36,990 nt of DNA from a virus (lineage: Duplodnaviria; Caudoviricetes), in the IMG/VR virus record IMGVR_UViG_3300028299_000012, positions 1 through 36,990 of that record. One strand, 5' to 3'. Position 1 is the stretch's first letter. Every line of letters begins with the position of its first letter. A program made the position numbers and the translations under genes. Of this stretch, positions 104 to 33,041 are shown piece after piece. Under the pieces are notes generated by a model. It worked only from the letters and a program-made list of their open reading frames with translations. It was not told where the DNA came from and did no database searches.

Positions 104-424
104 ATGACCATCCGTACACCATCCGGCCGAACCGTCACCGTCACGCTTGGCGTGGTCTGGCACGACCGCGACCGGACGCCAGTCGTCCACTACACGGGCG
201 ACGAGACCGCCGACGTGTTGGTCGCGTTCGGCAACGTGCTGCTGCCGGACCCGCCCCCACCGCCCCCGCCGCCGACGCAGGAGCTCGAAGCCGCAGCGGT
301 GGAGGCGGTCGCCACCAGGCCGATACTCGGCGAGGACCACGACGCGCTGGTGGCCGCGGTAGCGGCGCTGGCGGACCGGGTGGCGGCGATGGAGAAGGCC
401 GCTACGGCAGAAGTCCCGAAGTAG
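104..424 (+). CDS. hypothetical protein with poly-Pro linker
   Basis: 106 aa ORF starting right after the upstream stop, GC-rich third codon positions. Confidence 0.65.
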   Translation: MTIRTPSGRTVTVTLGVVWHDRDRTPVVHYTGDETADVLVAFGNVLLPDPPPPPPPPTQELEAAAVEAVATRPILGEDHDALVAAVAALADRVAAMEKAATAEVPK

Positions 425-502
425 GTGTATCGTATTGTATGAGTCACGGGATGTTCCCGCAACGCAGAGTACCGGAGTCGAAATCAAGAAGGAGGTCTGA
501 CG

Positions 503-1315
503 ATGAAGACGTTGACGTTGGGTCGCATGATTGTCGCTCTGGTGATGATCCTGTTCTGCTGCATGATCGGGATTGCCCTGGCGTGTGCCGTTTCGGGCTG
601 CGCCGGATTCGGCAGCGGTACCCCGAAAACCGCGTTGTACACGTTCAACATCGCCAAGGATGCCAAATCCACAATCGTCGTGGGTTCTGCCGGCACGCAG
701 ACGTACATGCCGCAGACCCTCGAAGTTGCCGACGTGCCTGATGCCACGAAGCTGACCGCTACTACTGGGCCAGAGTTGCTGGCCAGCGGCGCCACCGCGG
801 CCGGTGTCGCCAAGGGCAAGATGTCTCAGGTAATCGTCGGAGCCGACAACGCCAAGCGAACCGCGGAAAACGACGTGAGCGCGGCTATGCAGGCGCTGGC
901 TGGCAACGAGCAGACGACCGCGGGGCAGACCCCGGCAATGGTGCAGCGACAGGGCGAAGCCGCGGCTACCGGCACAACGACCTCGACGCCTATGGCAACC
1001 AAGACAACCACCGTCAAGATCCCGCTCACCGGGCAGGGCTCGGCTACGGTTGACGACGCTTCCACGAATACCGGCACCGGCACTGCTACGCCCAGCGAGA
1101 CCGCAACACCCGCGGCGGAAGCGGGAACAACCGGGGTTGAGGTGGCCAGCAAGATGACGAAGAACGCCGACGGCAGCTATACCGTCGTCACCGACAAGGG
1201 CACCCATACCGGGGAACTCCTGCGCACGCCGACCGAAGCGGGGGGCCAGTACGTGCTACTGCGCACGGATGGCTCACCCGTGGCGTTCACCTGCGTCGGC
1301 TGCGCCGACGAGTAG
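503..1315 (+). CDS. putative lipoprotein (Thr/Ala-rich)
   Basis: Strong RBS AAGGAGG, basic N-terminus, hydrophobic signal ending in lipobox-like VSGC. Confidence 0.65.
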   Translation: MKTLTLGRMIVALVMILFCCMIGIALACAVSGCAGFGSGTPKTALYTFNIAKDAKSTIVVGSAGTQTYMPQTLEVADVPDATKLTATTGPELLASGATAAGVAKGKMSQVIVGADNAKRTAENDVSAAMQALAGNEQTTAGQTPAMVQRQGEAAATGTTTSTPMATKTTTVKIPLTGQGSATVDDASTNTGTGTATPSETATPAAEAGTTGVEVASKMTKNADGSYTVVTDKGTHTGELLRTPTEAGGQYVLLRTDGSPVAFTCVGCADE

Positions 1316-18027: not shown

Positions 18028-18681
18028 ATGCCAAACCTCATCGCCACCTGCTACGGCCGCTACTGCGACCAGCTCGACCAGTGCGAAATGTGTCAGGAGC
18101 GGCCATGGTGCCGCGACGCTGCCGACCCGCGCCCGCTCAATACCGGGCAGGCTGCGGGCGAGGCATACGAGGCGGCACAGCGCGAACCGCACCAGCCCGA
18201 GCGGCACGACCCGGGGGCCACTACCGAGTTCAGCCAGGCAATGCGGCGCATCATCGTGCTGTGTGGCGGCAACCCGGCACGCATCGGCGCGGTCCTGCTG
18301 CGCCTGGCCGGCTGGTCGTTCGACGCCATCGGGGATAGCTTCCGTCTGGTGTCGGTCGGCAAGAGCAGGCAGGCAGCATGGAAGGACCTCCAGCGCGTCG
18401 TGGCGGACAACCCCGAACTGGCCAAGCTCTTGCGCAAGCGCTTCGACCGGCCCACGGTGGCGCCGACCGTCACTGCCGCGCTGGTAGCCGCGTTCGCCGA
18501 GCGCCGGCCATTGTGGCGCGGACCCGTCAAAGGCCCGACCGGAATCTATGCCATGCTCGCAGTCGAGTTCGGGCTCTCGAGCTGGCACGCCGCCGCGTCC
18601 AGGCTCAGGCGGGCCGGGGTACGCGTTGACAAGCGCCGCCATAGTGTGACACAGAAGCAGCAGCAAGGCCATGCGCCATGA
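18028..18681 (+). CDS. putative late transcription regulator (Cys-rich N-terminus, possible HTH)
   Basis: Lies directly before terS; HTH-like GWSFDAIGDSF..SRQAAWK. Confidence 0.45.
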   Translation: MPNLIATCYGRYCDQLDQCEMCQERPWCRDAADPRPLNTGQAAGEAYEAAQREPHQPERHDPGATTEFSQAMRRIIVLCGGNPARIGAVLLRLAGWSFDAIGDSFRLVSVGKSRQAAWKDLQRVVADNPELAKLLRKRFDRPTVAPTVTAALVAAFAERRPLWRGPVKGPTGIYAMLAVEFGLSSWHAAASRLRRAGVRVDKRRHSVTQKQQQGHAP

Positions 18682-19085
18682 CACCCAAGCGCGCCAAGTT
18701 CGTTTCTGAGTACCTCAAGGACTTCAATGCAACCCAGGCGGCACTGCGGGCGGGGTACTCTCAACGTAATGCAAACGTAGTCGGTCCGAGGCTGTTGGTA
18801 AGCGTTGGTATAGCCGAAGCTGTTGCCAGATCGGTCCAAAAAGCGCGCTCCGCCGCCATCATGACATTGGAGGAAGCGCTGGAGGTTGCCAGTCGCGGCG
18901 CCAGGGGCGACGACGGCAACGCGCGCTGGTCCGACCGGACCCGCTGTCTGGAGCGCCTGGCCAAGATGAGCGGCTGGGACAAGCCGGCAACGCTCGACAT
19001 CACCAGCGGCGGCCAGCCCCTGCGAACCGAGATCGTCGTAAGGGCGCGAGACGTGGCGGAACCGGACGAGGAGAGCACACCATGA
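18678..19085 (+). CDS. terS: terminase small subunit
   Basis: FVSEYLKDFNATQAALRAGYS (Terminase_2-type motif). Confidence 0.9.
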   Translation: MTPKRAKFVSEYLKDFNATQAALRAGYSQRNANVVGPRLLVSVGIAEAVARSVQKARSAAIMTLEEALEVASRGARGDDGNARWSDRTRCLERLAKMSGWDKPATLDITSGGQPLRTEIVVRARDVAEPDEESTP

Positions 19086-19128
19086 GAGTCTACATCCTGG
19101 CGGGCCACCTGGAGGTAGTCGAGACAGC

Positions 19129-20514
19129 ATGACCACCGACCCCCCAACCACAGCGCGCTTGGAGTTTGTGGAGCCCTACGAGCCGCTGCTCCGCGACGCC
19201 ATCACGACGCGCTACTGTATCGTGACCGGCGGCCGTGGTTCGGGGAAGTCCTTTGCCGTCACCACCGCGCTGGCCATGATGCTGCGCAAGGCGGGGATGT
19301 CGGCGCTGTTCACGCGGTACACGATGATAGCCGCGGTGGACAGCATCATCCCCGAGTTCATGGAGAAGATCGAGCTGCTGCAATGCGCGGGCGAGTTCAC
19401 TGCGTCCCAGCACGCGGTGATCCACTGCCGGGGCAGCTCGATACTGTTCCGCGGCATCAAGGTCGGGTCGTTGAACCAGACGGCCAAGCTCAAGAGTCTC
19501 CAGGGAATCAACGTGTGGGTACTGGACGAGGCGGCAGAGCTGGCAGACCCGGTGACGTTCGAGACCATCGACCTGAGCGTGCGTGACTCCCGCCGGCCCA
19601 ATCTGGTGCTGCTCGTGCTGAACCCGCCGCACAAAGCACACTGGATGTACTCGCGTTTCTTTGCGGACATTCCGCCCGAGTTCTGCGGGGTGCGGGGCGA
19701 TGTGACCTACATCCACACGACCTACCTCGACAACAAACCCAACCTGCCCGAGGGCTACCTGCGGCTGGCTGCCGACATGAAGGCAGCCAACCCGACGCGC
19801 TATGCCCACATCTGGCGCGGCCATTGGGCGGACGCCGCAGAGGGCGCGCTGTGGACGTGGGAGATGATCGACAGGCACCGGCACCGCGAGAGTGCCAAGC
19901 TGCCCGAGTTCTGCCGCGTGGTAGTCGCGATAGACCCCGCCGTGACCAGCAGCGACACCAGCGATGAGACAGGCATCGTGTGCGTCGCCATGGACTTCGC
20001 CGGGCACTACTATGTCCTGTCGGATCTGACCTGCCGGGCCAGCCCCATGCAGTGGGCCACGGTGGCGATAGGCGAGTACAAGACGCGCAGCGCTGACCGG
20101 ATCGTGGCTGAGGTGAACAATGGCGGGGACTTGGTGGAAGCGACGCTGCGCAACGTGGACCGCAGTGTGGCCTATGGCGCGGTCCATGCCAGCCGGGGCA
20201 AGATAGTACGGGCCGAGCCCGTAGCGGCGCTGTATGAGCAGGGCTTGGTACATCACGTCGGGGCATTCCCGGCGCTTGAGACTGAACTGATGACCTACGC
20301 GGGCAAGAGCAACGACGCCAGCCCCAACCGCCTGGACGCGCTGGTGTGGGCGTTGTCGAGTCTGATGGATTCGAGCGGCAGGGCGGAACTGGCCAGTGCC
20401 AGCTCCATGGACCCCGGCGCAAACCGGCGCCCGCGGGACTTCAACCGGCTGGACCTGTCGCCGGATGAACGCAGGGCGCGACGCGAAGAGGAGAGCTATG
20501 CCGATGTGTATTGA
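19129..20514 (+). CDS. terL: terminase large subunit (PBSX-type)
   Basis: Walker A GGRGSGKS, Walker B VWVLDEA, LNPP, nuclease VAIDPA and NRLDALVWA. Confidence 0.95.
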   Translation: MTTDPPTTARLEFVEPYEPLLRDAITTRYCIVTGGRGSGKSFAVTTALAMMLRKAGMSALFTRYTMIAAVDSIIPEFMEKIELLQCAGEFTASQHAVIHCRGSSILFRGIKVGSLNQTAKLKSLQGINVWVLDEAAELADPVTFETIDLSVRDSRRPNLVLLVLNPPHKAHWMYSRFFADIPPEFCGVRGDVTYIHTTYLDNKPNLPEGYLRLAADMKAANPTRYAHIWRGHWADAAEGALWTWEMIDRHRHRESAKLPEFCRVVVAIDPAVTSSDTSDETGIVCVAMDFAGHYYVLSDLTCRASPMQWATVAIGEYKTRSADRIVAEVNNGGDLVEATLRNVDRSVAYGAVHASRGKIVRAEPVAALYEQGLVHHVGAFPALETELMTYAGKSNDASPNRLDALVWALSSLMDSSGRAELASASSMDPGANRRPRDFNRLDLSPDERRARREEESYADVY

Positions 20515-20547
20515 GCAGCAGCACACCCGCAGCAGGAGAGCAACCCC

Positions 20548-20745
20548 ATGATCCTCCAAATGCACTGGCAGCACATGGACGGGCACTACGAGTTCAAGGC
20601 ACAGGCAGACGTTGACCCTGACACAGAGGCTATGATAGACTGGGCCAGGGACGTACAGAAGCAACACCCGCCGCCGGATGGCACAATCTGGCTAATGTGT
20701 GATGAGAACGCGCCAATGTTCAAGCAGCAGGAGCCAAGCCCGTGA
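20548..20745 (+). CDS. hypothetical protein
   Basis: AGGAG RBS; inserted between terL and the portal gene. Confidence 0.55.
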   Translation: MILQMHWQHMDGHYEFKAQADVDPDTEAMIDWARDVQKQHPPPDGTIWLMCDENAPMFKQQEPSP

Positions 20746-23531
20746 GCATCGCAACCGCCTACAGTGCCGTCAGCAACTGGCTCCGCTTCAAGTACGCCGG
20801 CAAGCCACCGCCACGCCCGGAACGCGCCGACGACCGGCTGTACGCTGACTTCACCTTTTCGACCAAAGGCGGCGTGTCGGCCGCCATGAGCCCGTCCGAC
20901 CTACAAGGGATACTGTCCGAGGCGGCCGAGGGCTACAGTTGCACGCAGGCCGCGCTGATCAAGGAGATCCAGGAGAAGGAGCCATTGATCGCGGCGCACC
21001 TGGCCACACGCAAGGCGGCGCTCATGGGTTGCCCGTGGAAGGTCCAAGGCGAAGACGAGCAGGACAAGGCCGAGGAGCTGACAGCCATGTTGACCACGGC
21101 GGGCCTGTCGGACGCGCTCTCGCACCTATGCGACTACGTGCCGACCGGCTACAGCTTGGTCGTGAACGACTGGACCGAGGGCGGCAAGGCGATTGCGGGG
21201 TTTTTGCCGGTGGCGCCTGAGGTGATCGAGTTCGATCTTGGCGGCAACATGGCGTTGCAGGACAAGATGGGGGTTAAGCACCTGCTGGCCAAGGAGCACC
21301 CGGCGCAGTTCCTGACCGTCCTCGGACGTAGCAAGCCCGGCTTGCCCTGCCGCAACGGGCTGGGGCGATCGCTGGTGTGGATGTACCTCTTCAAGCACTC
21401 GGGTTTGGCCGGTGCCGCGCGCTACGTCGAGAAGTTCGGCAGTCCCTTCATGTACGCGACCATCCCGGCCGGGCAGTGGGGTGAACGCGGCACGATCCTG
21501 GCCACGCTGAAGGCAATGGGCCGGGACCACGCCGGGGTAATTAAGGAAGGCGGCACCATCGAGAACCTGACCGGGGCCAACGCCGACAGCACCGACGCGC
21601 AGATGCAGTTCCTCAAGTACTGCGACGACATCTTCGCCGTGGCTATCCTCGGCCAGCTTGCGACCAGCGGCGACGCGGGCGGACTGAGCAAGGGCCAGGC
21701 GCAGGAGAACGTCCGTATGGACTTGCTGGCCGGGGACGCACGGGCGCTCATGGCGGCAGTCAACAAGGGCCTGATCCTGCCGCTGTGCCAGATGCGCTAC
21801 GGCTGGCCGGACACGAAGGGCCTGAGCTTCGAGATCGAGTATGAGCCGAGTGAAGACCTCGACGCCAAGGCCACGCGGTACAAGACGCTCACGGAGGTGA
21901 CCGGGCGGATGATGGACGTTGCGACCGTGGAGGAAGAGTTTGGTGTGAAGTTCGGGGAGCCGAAGCCCGAGCCGGTCATGGTGGCCCCGGGCGGCGCGGT
22001 GCAGGGCGGGACGGGAGCAGCCGGCAACGGCGCGGCAGTGGCCAGCGGCGGCAAGGGCAAACGAGCCGTGGAGAACTTCGAGAACCCGCAGGCGCCCAAG
22101 ACGGCGCTTTCCGACCTCGCCACCTTCGCCGACACCCCGGCCGCCGTGGGCGCGCTGGATCTCATCGCACGCGAGGCGCTGCGACGCTACACGGCAGACG
22201 AAGAGGCTGCCGCGGCGTGGCTCGGGCCGGTGCAGCAGGCGGTACGCGAGGCGTTCGGCGACCTGGCGCCGGATGACGTGGAAGGCTTCACCGCGCGTGT
22301 GCCGTTGTTCCAGGCGTCGCTGCCGGCGGTGCTCAGCAAGATGGACGCGAGCGGGTTCGAGCGGCAGTTGGGAGACGCCATGCTTGCCGCGGTGGTCAAC
22401 GGCTTTGAGGAAGGCCAGCCGCGCCCTTTTCCGGTGACGCTGTATGACCTGGGCCAAATGCGCGTGGCAGCGGGAAGTCCACGCGGCGGCCAGTGGACAG
22501 CCGAGGGCGCCGCGGCCGGCCTGACCGGGCATACCGGCGGGCTGAAACACGCGGGGAAGCTCCGCAACAGGCTGGCCGGCGGCGGTGACTTTGACCGCGT
22601 GCAGACAGGCACCAAGACGATACCGGCGCGCGAGGCCAGCGAGAAGCAGGTGAAGATCAAGGGCGGCGGCGGTGCAACCAAGACCGTGCAGGTCAAGGCA
22701 GCACCGGAGCGCACTGTACCAGTGCAGGAGTATCGGCACAAGGACGGCACCCCGGCGACCGAAGCCGAGGCGTCTTTCTTGAAGAAGCTGGGCGTACCGC
22801 CGGCCGCGCATGACGTGCAGGTCACGATGGCACCTGACGCGAAGAACTGGGCCGCGTGGAAGGACAAAAGCGGCCAGCAGCAGATCCGGCGCAGCGCCGC
22901 CCAGGAGGACTACGGCAAGGCGAAGAAGTTGGACCGCACGCGCAAGATGGCGGGCGAGATGGGCGCACTGAGGACGCGCGTCGCACAGCACCAACTGGAG
23001 GGCCGGCCAGAGTCGATGGTGTTCGAGATCGAAGACCGCACGGTGATTCGGCTCGGGTCAACCGCGGAAGGCAGAGGCAAAGTCAAGGCGTACGGGCTCA
23101 CCACCCTCGAGGGCCGGCACGCCATGGTCAGCGGTGACACCGTGTCGTTGAAGTTCATCGGCAAGCACGCCAAGGAGAACACCGCCACGTTCACCGACGC
23201 CCGGTTGGCGCGCTTTGTCGCGGACCGCAAGGCAGCGGCGGGCGACGGGGGCAAGCTCTGGTCTGACGTGGGGCCGTCGCGCTTCCACAAGTACGTCAAG
23301 GAAGTCTCGCGCGGTCGCTACAGCACCAAGGATTTCCGCACGGTGCATGCGACCAGAACCGCACTCGAAGTAGTGCGTCCGCATATCGGCAAAACGCTGT
23401 CAATCAAAGACAAGCGTGCTATAGTACGTTCAGCTTCCGAGGCAGCGAGCAAGCTCCTCAACAACACGCCGGGCATGGCGCTGAAGAGCTACATCGACCC
23501 GGCAGTATTCGACCTCATCGGGGAGGGCTGA
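20742..23531 (+). CDS. Mu gp29/DUF935-like portal protein fused to a C-terminal DNA topoisomerase IB domain
   Basis: Portal motifs TRKAAL, GLGRSLVW, YVEKFGSP, ILGQLAT; linker QMRVAAGSPRGGQWT; TopIB motifs IRLGS, YGLTTL, FIGKH, KDFRT, LNNT..ALKSYIDP. Confidence 0.85.
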   Translation: MSIATAYSAVSNWLRFKYAGKPPPRPERADDRLYADFTFSTKGGVSAAMSPSDLQGILSEAAEGYSCTQAALIKEIQEKEPLIAAHLATRKAALMGCPWKVQGEDEQDKAEELTAMLTTAGLSDALSHLCDYVPTGYSLVVNDWTEGGKAIAGFLPVAPEVIEFDLGGNMALQDKMGVKHLLAKEHPAQFLTVLGRSKPGLPCRNGLGRSLVWMYLFKHSGLAGAARYVEKFGSPFMYATIPAGQWGERGTILATLKAMGRDHAGVIKEGGTIENLTGANADSTDAQMQFLKYCDDIFAVAILGQLATSGDAGGLSKGQAQENVRMDLLAGDARALMAAVNKGLILPLCQMRYGWPDTKGLSFEIEYEPSEDLDAKATRYKTLTEVTGRMMDVATVEEEFGVKFGEPKPEPVMVAPGGAVQGGTGAAGNGAAVASGGKGKRAVENFENPQAPKTALSDLATFADTPAAVGALDLIAREALRRYTADEEAAAAWLGPVQQAVREAFGDLAPDDVEGFTARVPLFQASLPAVLSKMDASGFERQLGDAMLAAVVNGFEEGQPRPFPVTLYDLGQMRVAAGSPRGGQWTAEGAAAGLTGHTGGLKHAGKLRNRLAGGGDFDRVQTGTKTIPAREASEKQVKIKGGGGATKTVQVKAAPERTVPVQEYRHKDGTPATEAEASFLKKLGVPPAAHDVQVTMAPDAKNWAAWKDKSGQQQIRRSAAQEDYGKAKKLDRTRKMAGEMGALRTRVAQHQLEGRPESMVFEIEDRTVIRLGSTAEGRGKVKAYGLTTLEGRHAMVSGDTVSLKFIGKHAKENTATFTDARLARFVADRKAAAGDGGKLWSDVGPSRFHKYVKEVSRGRYSTKDFRTVHATRTALEVVRPHIGKTLSIKDKRAIVRSASEAASKLLNNTPGMALKSYIDPAVFDLIGEG

Positions 23532-23533
23532 CC

Positions 23534-23677
23534 ATGTACACCGCGGCTGAACTGAACGGCGAGGAATTCCGCGAGTTGGCAGACGACCTGGACGGGCTGG
23601 ACTACGTGGACGAGGACGGCAACCCCATCGACCTGGCCGACGTGGACGAGGATGAAGAAGACGACCCAGACGAGTGA
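23534..23677 (+). CDS. 47 aa extremely acidic protein
   Basis: MYTAAELNGEEFRELADDLDGLDYVDEDGNPIDLADVDEDEEDDPDE; GGAGG RBS; absent from the ORF track. Confidence 0.65.
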   Translation: MYTAAELNGEEFRELADDLDGLDYVDEDGNPIDLADVDEDEEDDPDE

Positions 23678-23967
23678 CACCCAGGCTGGTGCCCAATCGC
23701 ATTATAGAGGCGGCAATGGAGTTAGCCAAGTACAGCGGAAACAGGCCGCGCCCATTGCGCTGCGACGGTTGCAACGCCGAAGCGGCATTGACTCAGTTTG
23801 ACGCGTTTCAAGAGAGGCACGGCAGTGAGTGTTCGTGGACTTGGTGGTTATGCGAAACATGTTCCAGACCAAACAAGAACCCTGTCATATTCAGGACGCA
23901 CGTCAACGAAGCGCTGTTTCGCTTTGCTGCCGAATGGCACAAAACCCGAAAGATGCCAGAATGGTAA
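23674..23967 (+). CDS. hypothetical CxxC protein
   Basis: GTGA-coupled; CDGC and CETC motifs; lower GC. Confidence 0.55.
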   Translation: MTPRLVPNRIIEAAMELAKYSGNRPRPLRCDGCNAEAALTQFDAFQERHGSECSWTWWLCETCSRPNKNPVIFRTHVNEALFRFAAEWHKTRKMPEW

Positions 23968-23988
23968 TAGCCCATTAAGGGTGCGCGC

Positions 23989-24171
23989 ATGACCACCCTA
24001 CGCCAACACCAGCAGCGCGCAGCCCGTTCCCCCCGCGGCACCAAGGGAAAGCCCTGCACCCCGGCGCAACTGGCAGCCCGCCGCCGCAATGCGGCTAAAG
24101 CCACTGCAGCACGGATCAACGCCATCAACGACGCACTGTCTGCCCTGCAAGGTGGCGTCGCGCCTCAATAG
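23989..24171 (+). CDS. small basic protein
   Basis: TPAQLAARRRNAAKA; followed by a terminator. Confidence 0.5.
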   Translation: MTTLRQHQQRAARSPRGTKGKPCTPAQLAARRRNAAKATAARINAINDALSALQGGVAPQ

Positions 24172-24201
24172 CCCCAGCCTGACATAGCCCACCGACCACC
24201 T

Positions 24202-24232
24202 AGCCCCGGCCCGCCGCCGGGGCTTTCCGTTT
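24202..24232 (+). terminator. putative Rho-independent terminator
   Basis: AGCCCCGGC-CCGCC-GCCGGGGCT then TTCCGTTT. Confidence 0.55.
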
Positions 24233-24275
24233 GTGCCCGTGAGAGGCCGGCTCGGTTGACAAACCGCGCCAGAGT

Positions 24276-25391
24276 ATGAGCACGCCTAAGCTCCGCGATA
24301 CAGCCTTGGTACTCCCGGTGGTGTGCCTGTTCAGCGACGAACAGGCCGAGCGTATTCCGCCGGACAGCTTCCTCGTCGTCAAGTACGGCAAGACGCGGTA
24401 CACCAAGGGCGACGCCAAGGGTGAGTATGAGTTCACCCCGGCCGACGCCGACAAGGTGATAGCCGACTTCACCGAGCGGGACCGCGCCATCGTCGTCGAC
24501 TACGAGCACCAGACCCTGACAGGGCAACGCGCGCCCGCGGCCGGCTGGATCGACTCGCTCACCAAGACCGCAGACGGCATTGCCGCGAAGGTGCGGTACT
24601 GGACCGAGCAGGGCATTGCCGACCTGAAGGCCGGCGCGTACCGCTATTTCTCACCAGTGCTCACGATGTCCCGGCAGCATCCGCTTTCGCTGCACAGCGT
24701 CGGATTGACGAACCACGCGGCGACACACTCACCGCCTGCGCTGGTAGCCTCCGACGATGCAGATAGTCCCGAACCCACCACCGAATTGGAGAACCGTGAC
24801 ATGGAACACCTGACGCACGTCGCCGGAGCCCTCGGGCTCACCATCCCCCTGACTGACGGAACCCCTGACGAAAAGGCCACCATGGAGGCCGTCACGGGCC
24901 GGATTGCGGCGCTTCGTGCAGCGGCAGAGGAGACACACGCGTTCCTGATGCTGCACGACGCGAGAGACCTGGGCGCCGTCACGGGCAAGATCAAGGGCAT
25001 GGTGCCGGCATGCGAGCTGACCGCGCTCAACGACCGGCTGGCCCTGATCGACGCCGAGAAGGCCGTCCAAGCCGCGTTCGGCGAGCGCAAGCTGGTGGAG
25101 TCGCAGCGCGGCTGGGCGTTGGATTACGCCAAGACGAACCCCGCCGGGTTCCAGCTGTTCCTGGCCGGCGCCGCGCAAGTGGCCCCCGGCCCGGCCGCGG
25201 CGGTCATGGCCGCGCTGGCCGACACTGCCGAGGATTCCCTGGCGCTGACCGACGAAGCGCTGGGCAGGAAGTTCGACCGGACCCCTTCACTGGCGGCAGA
25301 GGGGTTCACCAAGGCGAGCTATGCGGCGTTCCGCAAAGCGGAAGCCGCACAGCTCGTCCGCGAGTACGCCACCAAGACCACCAAGGAGTAG
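24276..25391 (+). CDS. Mu-like prohead protease I / scaffold
   Basis: IVVDYEHQT, APAAGWI, YRYFSPV, SVGLTN; an internal Met (MEHL) could start the scaffold. Confidence 0.9.
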   Translation: MSTPKLRDTALVLPVVCLFSDEQAERIPPDSFLVVKYGKTRYTKGDAKGEYEFTPADADKVIADFTERDRAIVVDYEHQTLTGQRAPAAGWIDSLTKTADGIAAKVRYWTEQGIADLKAGAYRYFSPVLTMSRQHPLSLHSVGLTNHAATHSPPALVASDDADSPEPTTELENRDMEHLTHVAGALGLTIPLTDGTPDEKATMEAVTGRIAALRAAAEETHAFLMLHDARDLGAVTGKIKGMVPACELTALNDRLALIDAEKAVQAAFGERKLVESQRGWALDYAKTNPAGFQLFLAGAAQVAPGPAAAVMAALADTAEDSLALTDEALGRKFDRTPSLAAEGFTKASYAAFRKAEAAQLVREYATKTTKE

Positions 25392-25397
25392 TGCAAC

Positions 25398-26135
25398 ATG
25401 GCTCTCTCTGCTGACACCCCGCAAAAAGTGATGGGCGGGCACTGGATCGACTACCCGCTGGAAGCCTCGGCGACCGTGTACGAAGGCTCCATGATCGGTG
25501 ACAACGCGAGCGGCTACGCGCGTGCTCTGACGGCCGGGGACCGCTTCCTCGGCATCGCCCAGAAGGGCTGCGTCGAGACCACCGCGGTGGCCGGTGCCCA
25601 GTATGTCCGCTGCCGGGTCGGCACCTGGCGGCAGGAGTACGCGCTGGCCGGCGCGATCACGGACATCGGCGCCAAGGTCTACGCGAGCGACGACGGCACC
25701 ATCACCAAGACGGCCGGCACGAACACGCCTGTCGGTGAGATCAAGCGCTACGTCAGCGCCACGATGATGGACATCGAGTTCACGACCGACCAGGGCGTTT
25801 CGGCGCTCATCGCCACCGGGAACGATGTGGTCCTGAAGAGCAACGACGACCTGACGCTGACCCCTGGCAAGCTCGCCGCGGACAAGGTCGTGATTCAGGG
25901 CTACGACATCGACGGGTCGACATACGTCGACCTCATCACCGTGGCCAGTCATGCCACCGTCCCCAAGCTGACCCTCGGCGCCAGCGCCGCAGACACCATC
26001 GCTTTCTACGGCGTTGCTGGCGTGACGCAGTTCGCGCACACGAGCGCCGCGAGCACGACCACCACGGACGTTGCCGCCGCGCTGGCGGACATCTACCTCA
26101 AGTTCGAGGGCCTCGGCCTCATGGCAACCGCGTAA
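25398..26135 (+). CDS. capsid decoration / cement-like protein
   Basis: YEGSMIG, RFLGIA, DIGAKVYASDD; position between protease and capsid genes. Confidence 0.65.
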   Translation: MALSADTPQKVMGGHWIDYPLEASATVYEGSMIGDNASGYARALTAGDRFLGIAQKGCVETTAVAGAQYVRCRVGTWRQEYALAGAITDIGAKVYASDDGTITKTAGTNTPVGEIKRYVSATMMDIEFTTDQGVSALIATGNDVVLKSNDDLTLTPGKLAADKVVIQGYDIDGSTYVDLITVASHATVPKLTLGASAADTIAFYGVAGVTQFAHTSAASTTTTDVAAALADIYLKFEGLGLMATA

Positions 26136-26226: not shown

Positions 26227-27540
26227 GTGAAACTGAACATCGGAGCCGGCACCAGCGTACTACCGGGTTACGAACCCTGGGACATCGCCAAGCACCGCGA
26301 CGCGTACCCGCTGCGGGTCGAAGACGGCAGTATCGAGGCGATCTACGCCAGCCACATCCTTGAGCACTTCCCGCACGCGCAGACGCTGGCCGTCCTGGCC
26401 GATTGGGTGCGGGCGCTGCAACCCGGCGGGACGCTGCAAGTAGCTGTTCCCGACTTCCAGAAGATTGCCGCGCAGTTCCTCGCAGGCAACGACGGCAACT
26501 GGGAAAGCTACGTGTGCGGCGGACAGACCGACGCCAACGACACGCACCGCGCCATCTTCAACCGCGCGAAGTTGACCGAACTGCTGACGCTGGCCGGGCT
26601 GGAAGACATCAAGCCGTGGTCGCCCGTCATCGAGGATTGCGCCGCGCTGCCGATATCGCTGAACCTGCAAGGCACCAAGCCCGCGGCGAAGGCAGCCACC
26701 CCGACCAGCACCGAAGTGCTGGCATCCGAGTACCCGCCGCCCGCGACGCACGCGCCCACCATAGCGCCGTCGTGCTCCGGCATGCCGAAGGCGCAGCCGA
26801 TTGCGCCGGCACCCGCGAAGGTGGTTGCCGTGTGGTCCGTGCCGCGCCTTGGCTTCATGGACACGTTCAAGAGCATCTATACGACGCTGCCGGCTTACGG
26901 CATTCCGCTGTCAACGGGGCAGGGCGTGTTCTGGGGGCAGGCGCTTGAGAAGGCGATGGAGCAGGCCATCGAGGTCCATGCCGCACAGTGGTTCCTGGCG
27001 CTCGACTATGACAGCGTCTTCACCCCGGCCGACCTGTCGGAAATGTTCCGCATCCTGAACGCTCACCCGCAGGAGATCGACTGCCTGAGCCCGTTCCAAT
27101 GGTGCCGGACCCGCAGCCAGCCGCTCTTTTCGCCGGTCCCCGACGCACAGGGCAACCTGCCACCGGTGAGCAACGTGCAACTGCTGGCAAACGACATCTT
27201 CCCCGTGTCAACGGCACACTTCGGCTTCACGCTGATTCGGGCCGCCGCCGTAGCGCGCATGCCGCATCCGTGGTTCATGCCGCTGACCGCGCTTGACGGC
27301 ACCTGGGGCGAAGGCCGCGTAGACGACGACATCTACTTCTGGCGCAAGTTCCGGCTATGCGGCGGCCGGATGTACATGGCGCCCAAGGTCACTATCGGCC
27401 ACGCGGAGCTTGACCTCCGCTGGCCCGGCGCCGACTTCAAGCTTCTGCACCAGCACATGTACGAGTACAACGCCAAGGGGAAACCCGCAGGCGTGTTCGG
27501 CAGCACCCCAACCCCCACAACTGAAGGAAAGCAACCATGA
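26227..27540 (+). CDS. class I SAM methyltransferase fused to GT-A glycosyltransferase-like domain
   Basis: KLNIGAG, YASHILEHF, LQPGGTL; Pro/Ala linker; LALDYD, DDDIYFW, IGH. Confidence 0.75.
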   Translation: MKLNIGAGTSVLPGYEPWDIAKHRDAYPLRVEDGSIEAIYASHILEHFPHAQTLAVLADWVRALQPGGTLQVAVPDFQKIAAQFLAGNDGNWESYVCGGQTDANDTHRAIFNRAKLTELLTLAGLEDIKPWSPVIEDCAALPISLNLQGTKPAAKAATPTSTEVLASEYPPPATHAPTIAPSCSGMPKAQPIAPAPAKVVAVWSVPRLGFMDTFKSIYTTLPAYGIPLSTGQGVFWGQALEKAMEQAIEVHAAQWFLALDYDSVFTPADLSEMFRILNAHPQEIDCLSPFQWCRTRSQPLFSPVPDAQGNLPPVSNVQLLANDIFPVSTAHFGFTLIRAAAVARMPHPWFMPLTALDGTWGEGRVDDDIYFWRKFRLCGGRMYMAPKVTIGHAELDLRWPGADFKLLHQHMYEYNAKGKPAGVFGSTPTPTTEGKQP

Positions 27541-28496
27541 GCATTCAGTCCCTCAACGGGCTGTCCAGCAGGGCAATCGTCGGCCGCTACTACGCGACCC
27601 TCGAAAACCTGGGCGTCCCCGCCTGGGTCGACGCGCTCTCGATGGAGTTCTCGAGCAACCAGAGCGAAGAGACCTACAAGTTCCTCGGCATGGCCCCCGC
27701 GCTGCGCGAGTGGGTCGGCGGGCGCATGGAGAAGGGCCTGCTGGTCGGGTCTCAGGCAATCAAGAACGTACACTACGAGGCGACGCTGAACTTCGACGTG
27801 TCGGACATCCGCCGCGACAAGACCGGGCAGATCATGGTCCGTGTGGACGAGCTGGCCCGGCGCACGCAGAACCACTGGTGCAGCCTGTTGTCCAGCCTTA
27901 TCGTGAACGGCGCTACCTCGGCGACCTGCTACGACGGGCAGGACTTCTTCGATGACGACCACAGTTCCGGCGACTCCGGCACTCTCCAGAACGACATCGA
28001 CGCGACCGATGTGCCGGCGCTGAACCTGACGCTGGCCGCACCGACTGCGGCCGAGATGGCGGCGGCGATCCTCGACACCATCGCCTACATGCACGCCTAC
28101 AAGGACGACCAGGGCGAGCCGATCAACGACGAAGCGCGCGAGTTCATCGTCATGACCGGCATCCCCCTGTTTTGGGGCGCGTGTGTTCAGGCGTGCAGCT
28201 TGTACAACATCAGCGGCGGCAGCGTCATGAACAACCCGCTGGTGGGCGGTGACTTCAAGGTGGTCCCGGTCTTTAACGGCAAGCTCTCGGCCGGCACGGC
28301 CCAGATCTGGCTGTTCCGCACCGACGCCCCGATCAAGCCCTTCATCCGGCAGGTCGAGACGCCCGTCACGATGAAGACCATTGGCGCCGGCAGCGAAAGC
28401 GAGTTCGACAACGATGCCTGGAAGTTCGGCGTGGACACCTGGCGCGGGGCCGGTTACGGGATGTGGCAGTATGCCTGCCGCGCGACCCTGAGCTGA
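27537..28496 (+). CDS. Mu-like major capsid protein (gpT family)
   Basis: FLGMAPALREWVGGR, YEATL, CYDGQDFFDDDH, KPFIRQ, GYGMWQ. Confidence 0.92.
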   Translation: MSIQSLNGLSSRAIVGRYYATLENLGVPAWVDALSMEFSSNQSEETYKFLGMAPALREWVGGRMEKGLLVGSQAIKNVHYEATLNFDVSDIRRDKTGQIMVRVDELARRTQNHWCSLLSSLIVNGATSATCYDGQDFFDDDHSSGDSGTLQNDIDATDVPALNLTLAAPTAAEMAAAILDTIAYMHAYKDDQGEPINDEAREFIVMTGIPLFWGACVQACSLYNISGGSVMNNPLVGGDFKVVPVFNGKLSAGTAQIWLFRTDAPIKPFIRQVETPVTMKTIGAGSESEFDNDAWKFGVDTWRGAGYGMWQYACRATLS

Positions 28497-31340: not shown

Positions 31341-31573
31341 CCCCTGCAGAGCTGTGTTACGCTGTGGCTGAGTCGCGATACTGGCGGGCGCGCGCGATAA
31401 GCCTCGGACTGCCGCCCGATGCGGACCCCGCCGACGTGATGCTGGTACAGGGCGGCGAAATGGGCGGGATTGAACCGGCGCGCAAAGTAGTGGACGAGTA
31501 CAACCGAACCGCGCGCGTGCTGCAGGCAGAGCTGGCGAAGGAGCAGCGAAAGGAAGCCGATGCCGCTTCGTAA
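31313..31573 (+). CDS. -1 frame extension of the tail chaperone (gpGT-like)
   Basis: The -1 frame is open from the slippery site: FYEGSAGGLTPAELCYAVAESRYW... Confidence 0.6.
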   Translation, partial: FYEGSAGGLTPAELCYAVAESRYWRARAISLGLPPDADPADVMLVQGGEMGGIEPARKVVDEYNRTARVLQAELAKEQRKEADAAS

Positions 31574-33041
31574 GCCAGTGTCGTTCACCGAAGCCGAGTC
31601 CTACCTGAAGGCCCGCCAGGACCGCCCGACCGCGCTCAATTCCACCCAGTATCTGACGCTGTGGGACAAAGAGGCCCGCCGCAAGGCGTTCTTTAGCGCC
31701 CGCGTCGCATCTGCCGATATCCTGGCCGAATTCCACCGGCTGACCCAAGCCGTAGTGGAAGGCCGGGGCAGCCAGACGCAGGCGGTCGAGCTGATGCGCG
31801 AGTTTCTGATGACGGACGGGCGCTCCGCACTGGAGAGGGGCGGGTGGATGATGCCCCGCGAAGCCGAGGGCAAGCTCACCGAGCTGGCGAGCACGCGCCG
31901 GCTCAACCTCATAGTCTACCAGAACGTCAAGATTGCGCAGGAAACGGGCAGCTATCAGCAGTGGGCACAGGTACGCGAGGACGTGCCCTATGGCCAGTGG
32001 CAACTGGGCTACTCGGAGGAGCACCGGGCCGAGCACGTTGCACGCGACGGGCGTATCTACCCCTTCGATCATCCAATCTGGACGGTGAGCCCGCCCGGCA
32101 GCGAGTTCAACTGCCATTGCTACCGGCGCGAGATGACCGCCGCGGAGGCGCGCGCGTCCGGTGCGACCATTGAGCCTGTAGACGCCGACGTGCAGCCTGG
32201 GCTGGTGGACTTCGACCCCAGCGGGGGCCTGGACCTGCCGCCCGTGGTCAAGGAAGACCTGCCGCCGGATTTGCGGGCCGAACTGCGCAAGGCGCTGGGC
32301 ATGGAGAACGAAGAAGAGGCGCTCGCGCGACGGTATCGGCGCGAAGTCAGAACGGCTATCGCCGCCCCGGTAGGAAGCGACCCGACCGAAATAGCGCGGG
32401 CAGCGCTTGACATGGCCACAGTAGACGCGATGCCATTTGAACAGGCAAAGCGCTTTGCATCGGCGGTTCGCCAATGGAAGGGCAGCCTACGCCTGTATGA
32501 CGTGGGCACAGAGGTCGTGGGGCACCACCTGGCAACCCTTAAACGCGTGCCGCCCGCTATGAGGCGTGCCGCCATTGAAGGGTCTGGTACTATCCATATT
32601 GGCGCACGTCCCGTTACTGGCTTTCATGGCATGGCGCATCTGAAAGGTGTTACACCAAGGGGATGGGAGGGAACGGGGTATACGTGGGACGATGTTGGCG
32701 GCGCAGGTCCAGACAGAAAGGGAGCTGGCACGTTCATTGGCGCGGATAGGTTTTATGGCGGGTCTCGTGACACTACGGCACTACATGAACTAGGGCACGC
32801 TGCCGATGTGGTTACCAAAAGCGTCGAGAATGCTACCGTGGAGCACCAGCGCCGCCTGTATGACAAGCTGGACGGCTATTTCCAGCAAGGCGGGCCGGGC
32901 GGCCAGGTTGGAGCACAGGAGCTAGCGGCACAAGGGATGGCGCAATACTTGAAATGGGGGCATGACTATGTTAAAGTTAACTATGACCGACCCTTTGCTA
33001 CTCTCATGGCAAGGGCGGTGCGGGGCGCGCTATGGAAGTAA
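31560..33041 (+). CDS. MuF (Mu gp30-like) protein with C-terminal zincin metallopeptidase domain
   Basis: AFFSARV, RRLNLIVYQN, HRAEH..DG..DHPIW..PP..FNCHC; C-terminal LHELGH and QELAAQ. Confidence 0.85.
   Translation: MPLRKPVSFTEAESYLKARQDRPTALNSTQYLTLWDKEARRKAFFSARVASADILAEFHRLTQAVVEGRGSQTQAVELMREFLMTDGRSALERGGWMMPREAEGKLTELASTRRLNLIVYQNVKIAQETGSYQQWAQVREDVPYGQWQLGYSEEHRAEHVARDGRIYPFDHPIWTVSPPGSEFNCHCYRREMTAAEARASGATIEPVDADVQPGLVDFDPSGGLDLPPVVKEDLPPDLRAELRKALGMENEEEALARRYRREVRTAIAAPVGSDPTEIARAALDMATVDAMPFEQAKRFASAVRQWKGSLRLYDVGTEVVGHHLATLKRVPPAMRRAAIEGSGTIHIGARPVTGFHGMAHLKGVTPRGWEGTGYTWDDVGGAGPDRKGAGTFIGADRFYGGSRDTTALHELGHAADVVTKSVENATVEHQRRLYDKLDGYFQQGGPGGQVGAQELAAQGMAQYLKWGHDYVKVNYDRPFATLMARAVRGALWK

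Follow-up and report, generated by a model that had tools for sequence, protein, structure and literature searches.

The type IB topoisomerase (TopIB) of vaccinia virus is carried in the virion core and aids early transcription, and we know of no partner protein for a poxviral TopIB. Its gene is late and conserved (PMC11980589, PMC4542343; these and the other papers given by PMC or bioRxiv number are represented here by excerpts of their text). In tailed phages, enzymes are found fused to the portal or MuF protein in the head module; they have been proposed to be packaged and injected, and ART, GNAT, 2H/Acb1, InPase and MPTase domains co-occur with them (Iyer et al. 2017, PMC5512222; 2022, PMC9503650). 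MuF polymorphic toxins likewise bear, on a head protein, C-terminal cargo that varies, with a short open reading frame (ORF) behind it, and such immunity-like ORFs follow MuF toxin genes in 89.4% of cases (Jamet et al. 2017, PMC5576092). The word topoisomerase occurs once, in a reference title, in the main text of PMC5512222 and nowhere in that of PMC9503650 (main texts as distinct from supplements); the available text of PMC5576092 has no match and does not list TopIB as a MuF toxin. Here we describe a gene on a tailed-virus contig from IMG/VR (IMGVR_UViG_3300028299_000012; the window is the whole 36,990-nt stretch analysed) that joins a Mu-type phage portal to a TopIB and is followed directly by a gene for a 47-residue acidic peptide. 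The portal-TopIB gene is real and intact and is part of a widespread cassette.

The source record is a virus contig of 36,990 bases, 65% complete, with matches in lake-water runs. Translation of positions 20742-23531 (+) gave one frame of 929 amino acids with no internal stop, as the original prediction had stated, and every sequence motif that it quoted was found in the product. The start codon is GTG, with GGAG 8 nt upstream, and overlaps the stop codon of the preceding 65-aa ORF. A single 16.9-kb Logan contig (depth 12) covers 19000-25500 with zero differences, gaps or joints, and hence spans 22000-22700, the part for which a check of read support had been advised, although the run that holds it is possibly the source sample. 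Three further lake runs contain 99%-identical pieces of both the portal and the TopIB half; none of the pieces listed from them (all but five) bridges the junction. The 929-aa product is recorded from JGI, Logan and ENA, possibly from one sample. GC content at third codon positions is alike in the portal (0.88), the TopIB (0.83) and the neighboring genes (0.84-0.91).

The searches with hidden Markov models (HMMs) that had been recommended matched both halves, PF06074 for the portal and PF01028 for the enzyme. Topoisom_I (PF01028) was found at residues 727-912 (E 9.5e-14; 51.7 bits against a cut-off of 23.7), and a PDB sequence search aligned Deinococcus radiodurans TopIB (2f4q) to residues 663-925 (E 4e-23). 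The alignment starts at residue 24 of 2f4q and so takes in the N-terminal clamp domain, which was modeled with a predicted local distance difference test score (pLDDT) of about 90; Pfam Top1B_N_bact scored 17 bits, below its cut-off of 27. Residues Arg-770, Lys-808, Arg-866, Asn-908 and Tyr-917 align to counted 2f4q positions 137, 174, 239, 280 and 289, which we take to be the D. radiodurans catalytic set, no paper giving these numbers having been found. The corresponding poxviral residues are R130, K167, R223, H265 and Y274 (PMC2943603, Table 1). Of 150 sequences, namely the query and its best relatives, 148 retain these five residues (R-K-R-N/H-Y); one exception is cut short and the other has Asp for Asn. 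The claim of an intact catalytic set with Asn at the fourth position is thus upheld by alignment, model and conservation.

Folding from the single sequence was poor (pLDDT 49.9), and we therefore modeled the domain with AlphaFold2 from a 45-row alignment, which gave a pLDDT of 94.9. The best Foldseek match was again D. radiodurans TopIB (2f4q/3m4a, E 1.2e-14), with which the phage domain shares the two-domain fold; poxvirus TopIB (vaccinia H6R; variola 2h7f, TM-score 0.71 to the modeled domain) matched as well. The recombinase XerH reached only 1.7e-2, and the protein has the KxxR motif of TopIBs, with Lys-863, not HxxR; identity as a tyrosine recombinase was rejected on these grounds. The domain is basic (49 Lys/Arg against 33 Asp/Glu; net charge +16). 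By every feature testable here, from sequence and model, it is a type IB topoisomerase, with ATP-independent relaxation by way of a 3'-phosphotyrosine as its predicted activity. It differs from the poxviral enzyme, which is a stand-alone protein of a eukaryotic virus with His at the fourth catalytic position (PMC2943603).

The portal half is equally well defined. Portal_Mu (PF06074) matched residues 72-402 (E 2.5e-61), with profile positions 3-336 of 336 aligned; the portal of phage JBD30 (8rka) aligned to residues 48-414 (E 7e-31), and the phrog_113 match extends to residue 558. The gene sits between those for the large terminase subunit (TerL) and the prohead protease and is the sole portal among 40 ORFs scanned. 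For comparison we took the 17 portals nearest to it (E up to 1e-40, from a search of lengths 510-1626) and aligned 12 of them; TopIB is absent from the family lists of all 17. The helical block at 465-560 is kept in 12 of the 12 aligned sisters, 9 of which end soon after it. The domain layout first proposed therefore stands for portal and TopIB and fails for its "helical segment", which is no separate domain or cargo but the C-terminal domain that this portal family conserves.

Behind this domain lies a short tag of the GGQWT type. One sister portal (P0271; 65% identical) is 52-74% identical through the tag, carries it as DQPRVPAGNAAGGQWT and continues into an unrelated domain of ~140 residues. 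Another (P0281) has a related tag ahead of a cargo domain of the same kind, and a third (P0270) has the tag and a different insert within an internal portal loop. Since the sisters either have different cargo after this tag or lack cargo, these comparisons show that the tag marks a cargo-swap point on the portal, in line with the original suggestion that GGQWT precedes variable cargo. The domain shared by P0271 (585-724) and P0281 (520-663) has no Pfam match and only hypothetical Atlas neighbors; the internal loop of P0270 presents yet another cargo behind the same tag. A loose form of the tag pattern lies at most 130 residues ahead of TopIB in 19/26 portal-TopIB fusions (in two it is the enzyme's own first hairpin), in 11/31 short stand-alone proteins and in 1/71 bacterial TopIB enzymes. 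It occurs in 4/28 MuF-only fusions, where three matches are again the enzyme's hairpin, and a tag general to all TopIB fusions was accordingly rejected.

We then asked which proteins carry related TopIB domains. A word-based homologue search matched only the protein itself, which was misleading; a full HMMER scan yielded 3570 relatives. A Pfam scan covered the 115 relatives of at least 400 residues among the best 149 non-self matches. A portal is present on 25 of them, from four Pfam families (Portal_Mu, Phage_portal, Phage_portal_2 and Phage_portal_3; weakly in P0109), MuF on 31 (three below the Pfam cut-off), and portal or MuF on 53. Other relatives carry Phage_min_cap2, DUF2213, ART, GNAT, Acb1, InPase, NUDIX, zeta-kinase or zincin domains, which is the repertoire of head-delivered effectors (PMC5512222, PMC9503650). 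TopIB stands at the C terminus in 130/150 proteins. A 724-aa protein of L002 (3099-5273) and L004 has an N-terminal TopIB and further domains without family; its gene is flanked by one for MuF-ART and one for the prohead protease, and two small ORFs come behind it.

Genomic loci were gathered from IMG/VR by two protein scans and one pattern scan, the pattern fitting 55/150 clade members; no part of a broader alignment (A2) was sufficiently conserved to serve in searching for loci. TopIB was present in 130/139 loci, forming 91 clusters. By hand tally, a PHROG head or packaging family lies on the TopIB protein or its immediate neighbor in 42 of 56 viral clusters, these being the clusters of at least 4 kb with giant-virus clusters left out. 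With the same domain on portals, MuF proteins and head-module genes of many phages, the virion association proposed originally is likely. Among 50,697 isolated phages, one weak TopIB match was obtained, in Bacteroides phage BS162P1 (OP172706.1:2115-2546), where the gene is annotated as topoisomerase, stands alone and lacks the peptide.

In a 52-row TopIB tree, carrier type required 14 changes (minimum 4) and the Portal_Mu label 6, and the row nearest to the query is a MuF-TopIB; head-protein fusions therefore arose repeatedly. The TopIB-peptide cassette moves between carriers, which include portals of four families, MuF and polyvalent head proteins. In a quick, unrooted 90-row tree, a branch with a Shimodaira-Hasegawa-like approximate likelihood ratio (SH-aLRT) support of 99 separates 48 head-type enzymes, together with P0195, P0267 and L081, from 28 bacterial enzymes, 7 of giant viruses and 4 other viral ones. 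Compared with the bacterial enzymes, the phage domain lies across this branch, is fused to a portal and lacks the bacterial C-terminal tail. Two stand-alone phage TopIBs without peptide (L029, L075) group with the giant-virus enzymes.

The acidic peptide, which the original prediction had not mentioned, is the second part of the cassette. Its ORF begins two bases after the TopIB stop codon, the final codons of TopIB contain a GGAGG site, and 22 of the peptide's 47 residues are acidic (47% Asp/Glu; net charge -21). The 91 clusters were hand-sorted, after scores and neighbors were known, into 67 head-type, 17 giant-virus-like (so called from the names of two contigs and from resemblance) and 7 other; two head-type clusters with open 3' ends were dropped, leaving 65. 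A composition filter found an acidic ORF at the TopIB stop in 50/65 head-type loci against 11/182 other long ORFs. This filter was not specific, also flagging a 207-aa giant-virus gene family and 5/74 bacterial loci, and we relied on HMMs instead.

Three peptide HMMs built from 47 training peptides matched 61/65 head-type loci, including 14/18 loci outside the training set, this phage among them (E 4e-5). All 74 peptide matches in viral loci (74/74) lie downstream of TopIB on the same strand. None was found in bacterial chromosomes, from which 74 TopIB loci, mostly actinobacterial and taken from a GTDB pattern scan of 3/64 parts, were examined with 1.3 kb of downstream sequence, so that the partner also sets the phage enzyme apart from bacterial TopIBs; the same scan yielded no host or prophage. 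The 24 giant-virus-like and other loci likewise gave no match, many of them having only about 250 nt of flank. The peptide itself has no Pfam match, and its Atlas matches are all under 0.8. On the TopIB tree, peptide type changes twice, which is the minimum of 2, against a shuffled mean of 21.7 (46 rows; kin share labels). Eleven proteins (P0062, P0086, P0070, P0078, P0061, P0046, P0160, P0173, P0179, P0182 and P0187) carry the peptide 2-15 residues behind TopIB in one chain, possibly as an auto-inhibitory tail. In L004 and L040, where TopIB shares its protein with other domains, two small ORFs follow and the second encodes the peptide, which by analogy fits a pattern of one partner per effector. 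In three loci the peptide is fused to the N terminus of the downstream protein (L017:7789-8295, L015:3820-4323 and L049:6633), a NUDIX hydrolase in L015 and L017.

The surrounding genes (Table 1) follow a Mu-like head-module order: small terminase subunit, TerL, the 65-aa ORF, portal-TopIB, the 47-aa ORF, prohead protease, cement, methyltransferase, major capsid and, later, MuF.

Table 1. Features of the portal-TopIB locus and its head module (window positions; residues are those of the 929-aa protein)
Feature	Position	Strand	Basis
Terminase small subunit	18678..19085	+	PF03592 E 2e-21
Terminase large subunit	19129..20514	+	PF04466 E 3.5e-25, PF17289; phrog_979, phrog_2
65-aa ORF, function not assigned	20548..20745	+	translation, ribosome-binding site; stop overlaps portal start
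Mu-type portal, residues 1-560	20742..22421	+	PF06074, phrog_113, 8rka, sister portals
Portal core	residues 72-402	+	PF06074
Variable Gly/Ala loop of portal	residues about 411-465	+	sister-portal alignment
Conserved C-terminal helical domain of portal	residues about 465-560	+	sister-portal alignment
Cargo tag QMRVAAGSPRGGQWT, swap point	22455..22499, residues 572-586	+	same tag ahead of other cargo in P0271, P0270, P0281
Gly/Ala/Lys-rich linker	22500..22727, residues 587-662	+	composition; no family match
Type IB topoisomerase, N-terminal domain and catalytic core	22728..23531	+	Pfam, PDB, model, alignment
Catalytic codons	R770 (23049), K808 (23163), R866 (23337), N908 (23463), Y917 (23490)	+	2f4q alignment
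47-aa acidic partner, predicted inhibitor/immunity peptide	23534..23677	+	composition, HMM; called in JGI, Logan, ENA
Mu-like prohead protease/scaffold, candidate for cargo release	24276..25391	+	PF10123 E 3.7e-45, phrog_328
Mu gpT-like major capsid protein	27537..28496	+	PF10124 E 6e-36
MuF head protein with C-terminal zincin-like domain, second cargo carrier	31560..33041	+	PF04233 E 2e-11, PF07737 E 8e-7; phrog_220

The MuF gene is displaced from the portal to a position just before a long ORF that we label tape-measure-like, for which there was no family match. The HExxH zincin-like domain at the MuF C terminus bears the Pfam label ATLF, shared with the TopIB-bearing relatives P0008, P0012, P0014 and P0038, and is likely of the MPTase type of polyvalent proteins. 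Between the cement and major capsid genes, a 437-aa ORF (26227-27540, +) has an N-terminal methyltransferase match and a C-terminal half matching phrog_1574; judged by a motif, this half is presumably glycosyltransferase-like. Between the peptide and protease genes, a short basic ORF (+; start about 23989, placed by eye) is followed by a terminator-like hairpin at 24202-24224. A single sigma70-like site (TTGGCT-17-TATAAT, 10/12; 0.1 expected) at 23729-23701 on the minus strand lies in a lower-GC spacer and aims antisense into the peptide gene and the TopIB 3' end. No integrase was found among the 40 ORFs scanned of this 65%-complete record, and Rfam gave no match across the window.

By sequence and neighborhood, the locus fits the class of portal-fused effectors, with an enzyme on a head protein in a late module and a slot that varies among relatives; it departs from the members described in that the cargo is a DNA-topology enzyme. 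The 929-aa protein is not a MuF toxin, as its carrier is a portal without the N-terminal MuF domain and MuF is a separate gene, though its layout resembles an effector-immunity pair. We therefore favor, as a proposition that we hold in even balance, a capsid-loaded TopIB effector that is silenced by its partner and acts after infection. The grounds are the late-module slot, otherwise occupied by enzymes thought to be injected, and the MuF-like immunity layout. The original prediction had offered torsion relief during packaging or ejection beside delivery as an effector, and the acidic partner favors the latter branch.

In the proposed mechanism, the two-part, swappable cassette of TopIB and coupled acidic peptide is plugged into the cargo slot at the portal C terminus. 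Because the clamp is basic and the peptide has a net charge of -21, the peptide would likely bind the clamp as a DNA-mimic plug, keeping the enzyme off while the virion is built; inhibition is suggested by the charges, -21 against +16, and by the toxin-immunity gene order. By analogy with JBD30, the portal would be a dodecamer assembled into the head. The crown and wing of the JBD30 portal remain inside the capsid (PMC11445458), and TopIB therefore likely faces the DNA from the inner side of the portal, with as many as 12 copies in each head. The prohead protease would free TopIB near the tag, and the enzyme would pass the tail unfolded and become active after entry. Its most likely target would be the entering phage genome, where ATP-free relief of supercoils could serve early transcription, as with the vaccinia virion enzyme; relaxation of host DNA is a sub-variant.

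Several points weigh against this proposal. Ejection leaves portals behind, so that release would require proteolysis, and the tagged cargo of P0270, flanked by portal on both sides, would need two cuts. TopIB does not readily suggest itself as a toxin, and many bacteria have one without such a partner. Where the peptide is fused in cis, the inhibitor would travel with the enzyme unless it were cut off. The agreement of peptide type with the TopIB tree points to co-inheritance as a cassette, not to contact, and similarity among the three peptide types is only weak (hhalign E 0.006-0.1). Finally, the peptide was unrecognized in four head-type loci and in L081, which has a portal upstream and is one of the 24 loci without a match.

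The main rival, a TopIB that stays on the portal as a tethered swivel, nicking and resealing DNA to release twist late in packaging or during ejection, is unlikely in our judgment, though it has a physical basis. Portal and MuF both sit at the vertex where DNA enters, with the crown and wing domains facing inward (PMC11445458), and simulations indicate that motor-induced torsional strain is only partly released late in packaging (PMC7203069). TopIB works without ATP, and portal fusions arose repeatedly and independently, as the six changes of the Portal_Mu label indicate. The peptide would then be a maturation-time guard or an adaptor; a partner made simultaneously would, however, probably block TopIB just when packaging needs it. 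Moreover, close sister portals (55-65% identical) package without TopIB or with unrelated cargo in the slot, and the cassette is also found as tagged genes that stand alone and within polyvalent proteins bearing ART, GNAT or Acb1.

Somewhat less probable is late action in the producer cell, where the fusion would confer only late expression and localization, the peptide would tune the enzyme, and TopIB would relax replicating or concatemeric phage DNA or counter a defense able to detect the packaging machine. Cytoplasmic action of portals against host responses has a precedent (bioRxiv 10.64898/2026.01.27.700999), and the same alternative has been raised for portal-linked ARTs (PMC9503650). 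This leaves unexplained the near-constant association with head proteins or tags and the retention of a tightly coupled acidic partner, and the C terminus points inward once the portal is in the procapsid. Less probable again is a polymorphic toxin-immunity pair directed at competitors or non-immune hosts through chromosome relaxation or nicking, with the peptide made as immunity by the lysogen. The gene order is that of MuF toxin-immunity modules (PMC5576092), L004 and L040 have one small ORF per effector, and the minus-strand sigma70-like site, a single consensus match, could set separate control. Yet the gene with which the peptide is coupled is late and structural and not one of a lysogeny module, and neither integrase nor repressor was found among the ORFs scanned in this incomplete record. 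An assembly chimera or dead passenger domain is very improbable: the sole run bridging the junction may be the source sample, but there are 25 other portal-TopIB fusions, P0271 has the same junction architecture, a cognate peptide of matching type lies directly behind, and the catalytic residues are invariant.

Our full-text literature search turned up no paper that treats a TopIB fused to a head protein, or the acidic partner; the supplements of PMC5512222 and PMC5576092 could include the domain. In the excerpt of PMC2647321, viral TopIBs are listed for poxviruses and mimivirus only, and an undiscovered viral group is proposed as the source of bacterial TopIB. The phage clade supplies a candidate for this group, predicted in 2009; our tree separates it from the bacterial enzymes but is unrooted and gives no direction. 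It is a tentative idea, and one we rather doubt, that the clade is old, widespread and capsid-loaded, each member with an acidic DNA-mimic TopIB inhibitor, and that it is the "missing viral TopIB group" of Forterre and Gadelle (PMC2647321) from which bacterial TopIB came.

If the proposal of a silenced, delivered enzyme is true, DNA topology would be one more task for which tailed phages make provision within the particle. Such preparation has so far been associated with poxviruses. The TopIB family, to which the human drug target belongs and for which we know of no natural protein inhibitor, would then have one in the 47-aa partner. Through the cassette, two questions come within reach of experiments on small proteins: whether a swivel is needed for packaging or ejection, and whether cargo bound to the portal can be released and injected.

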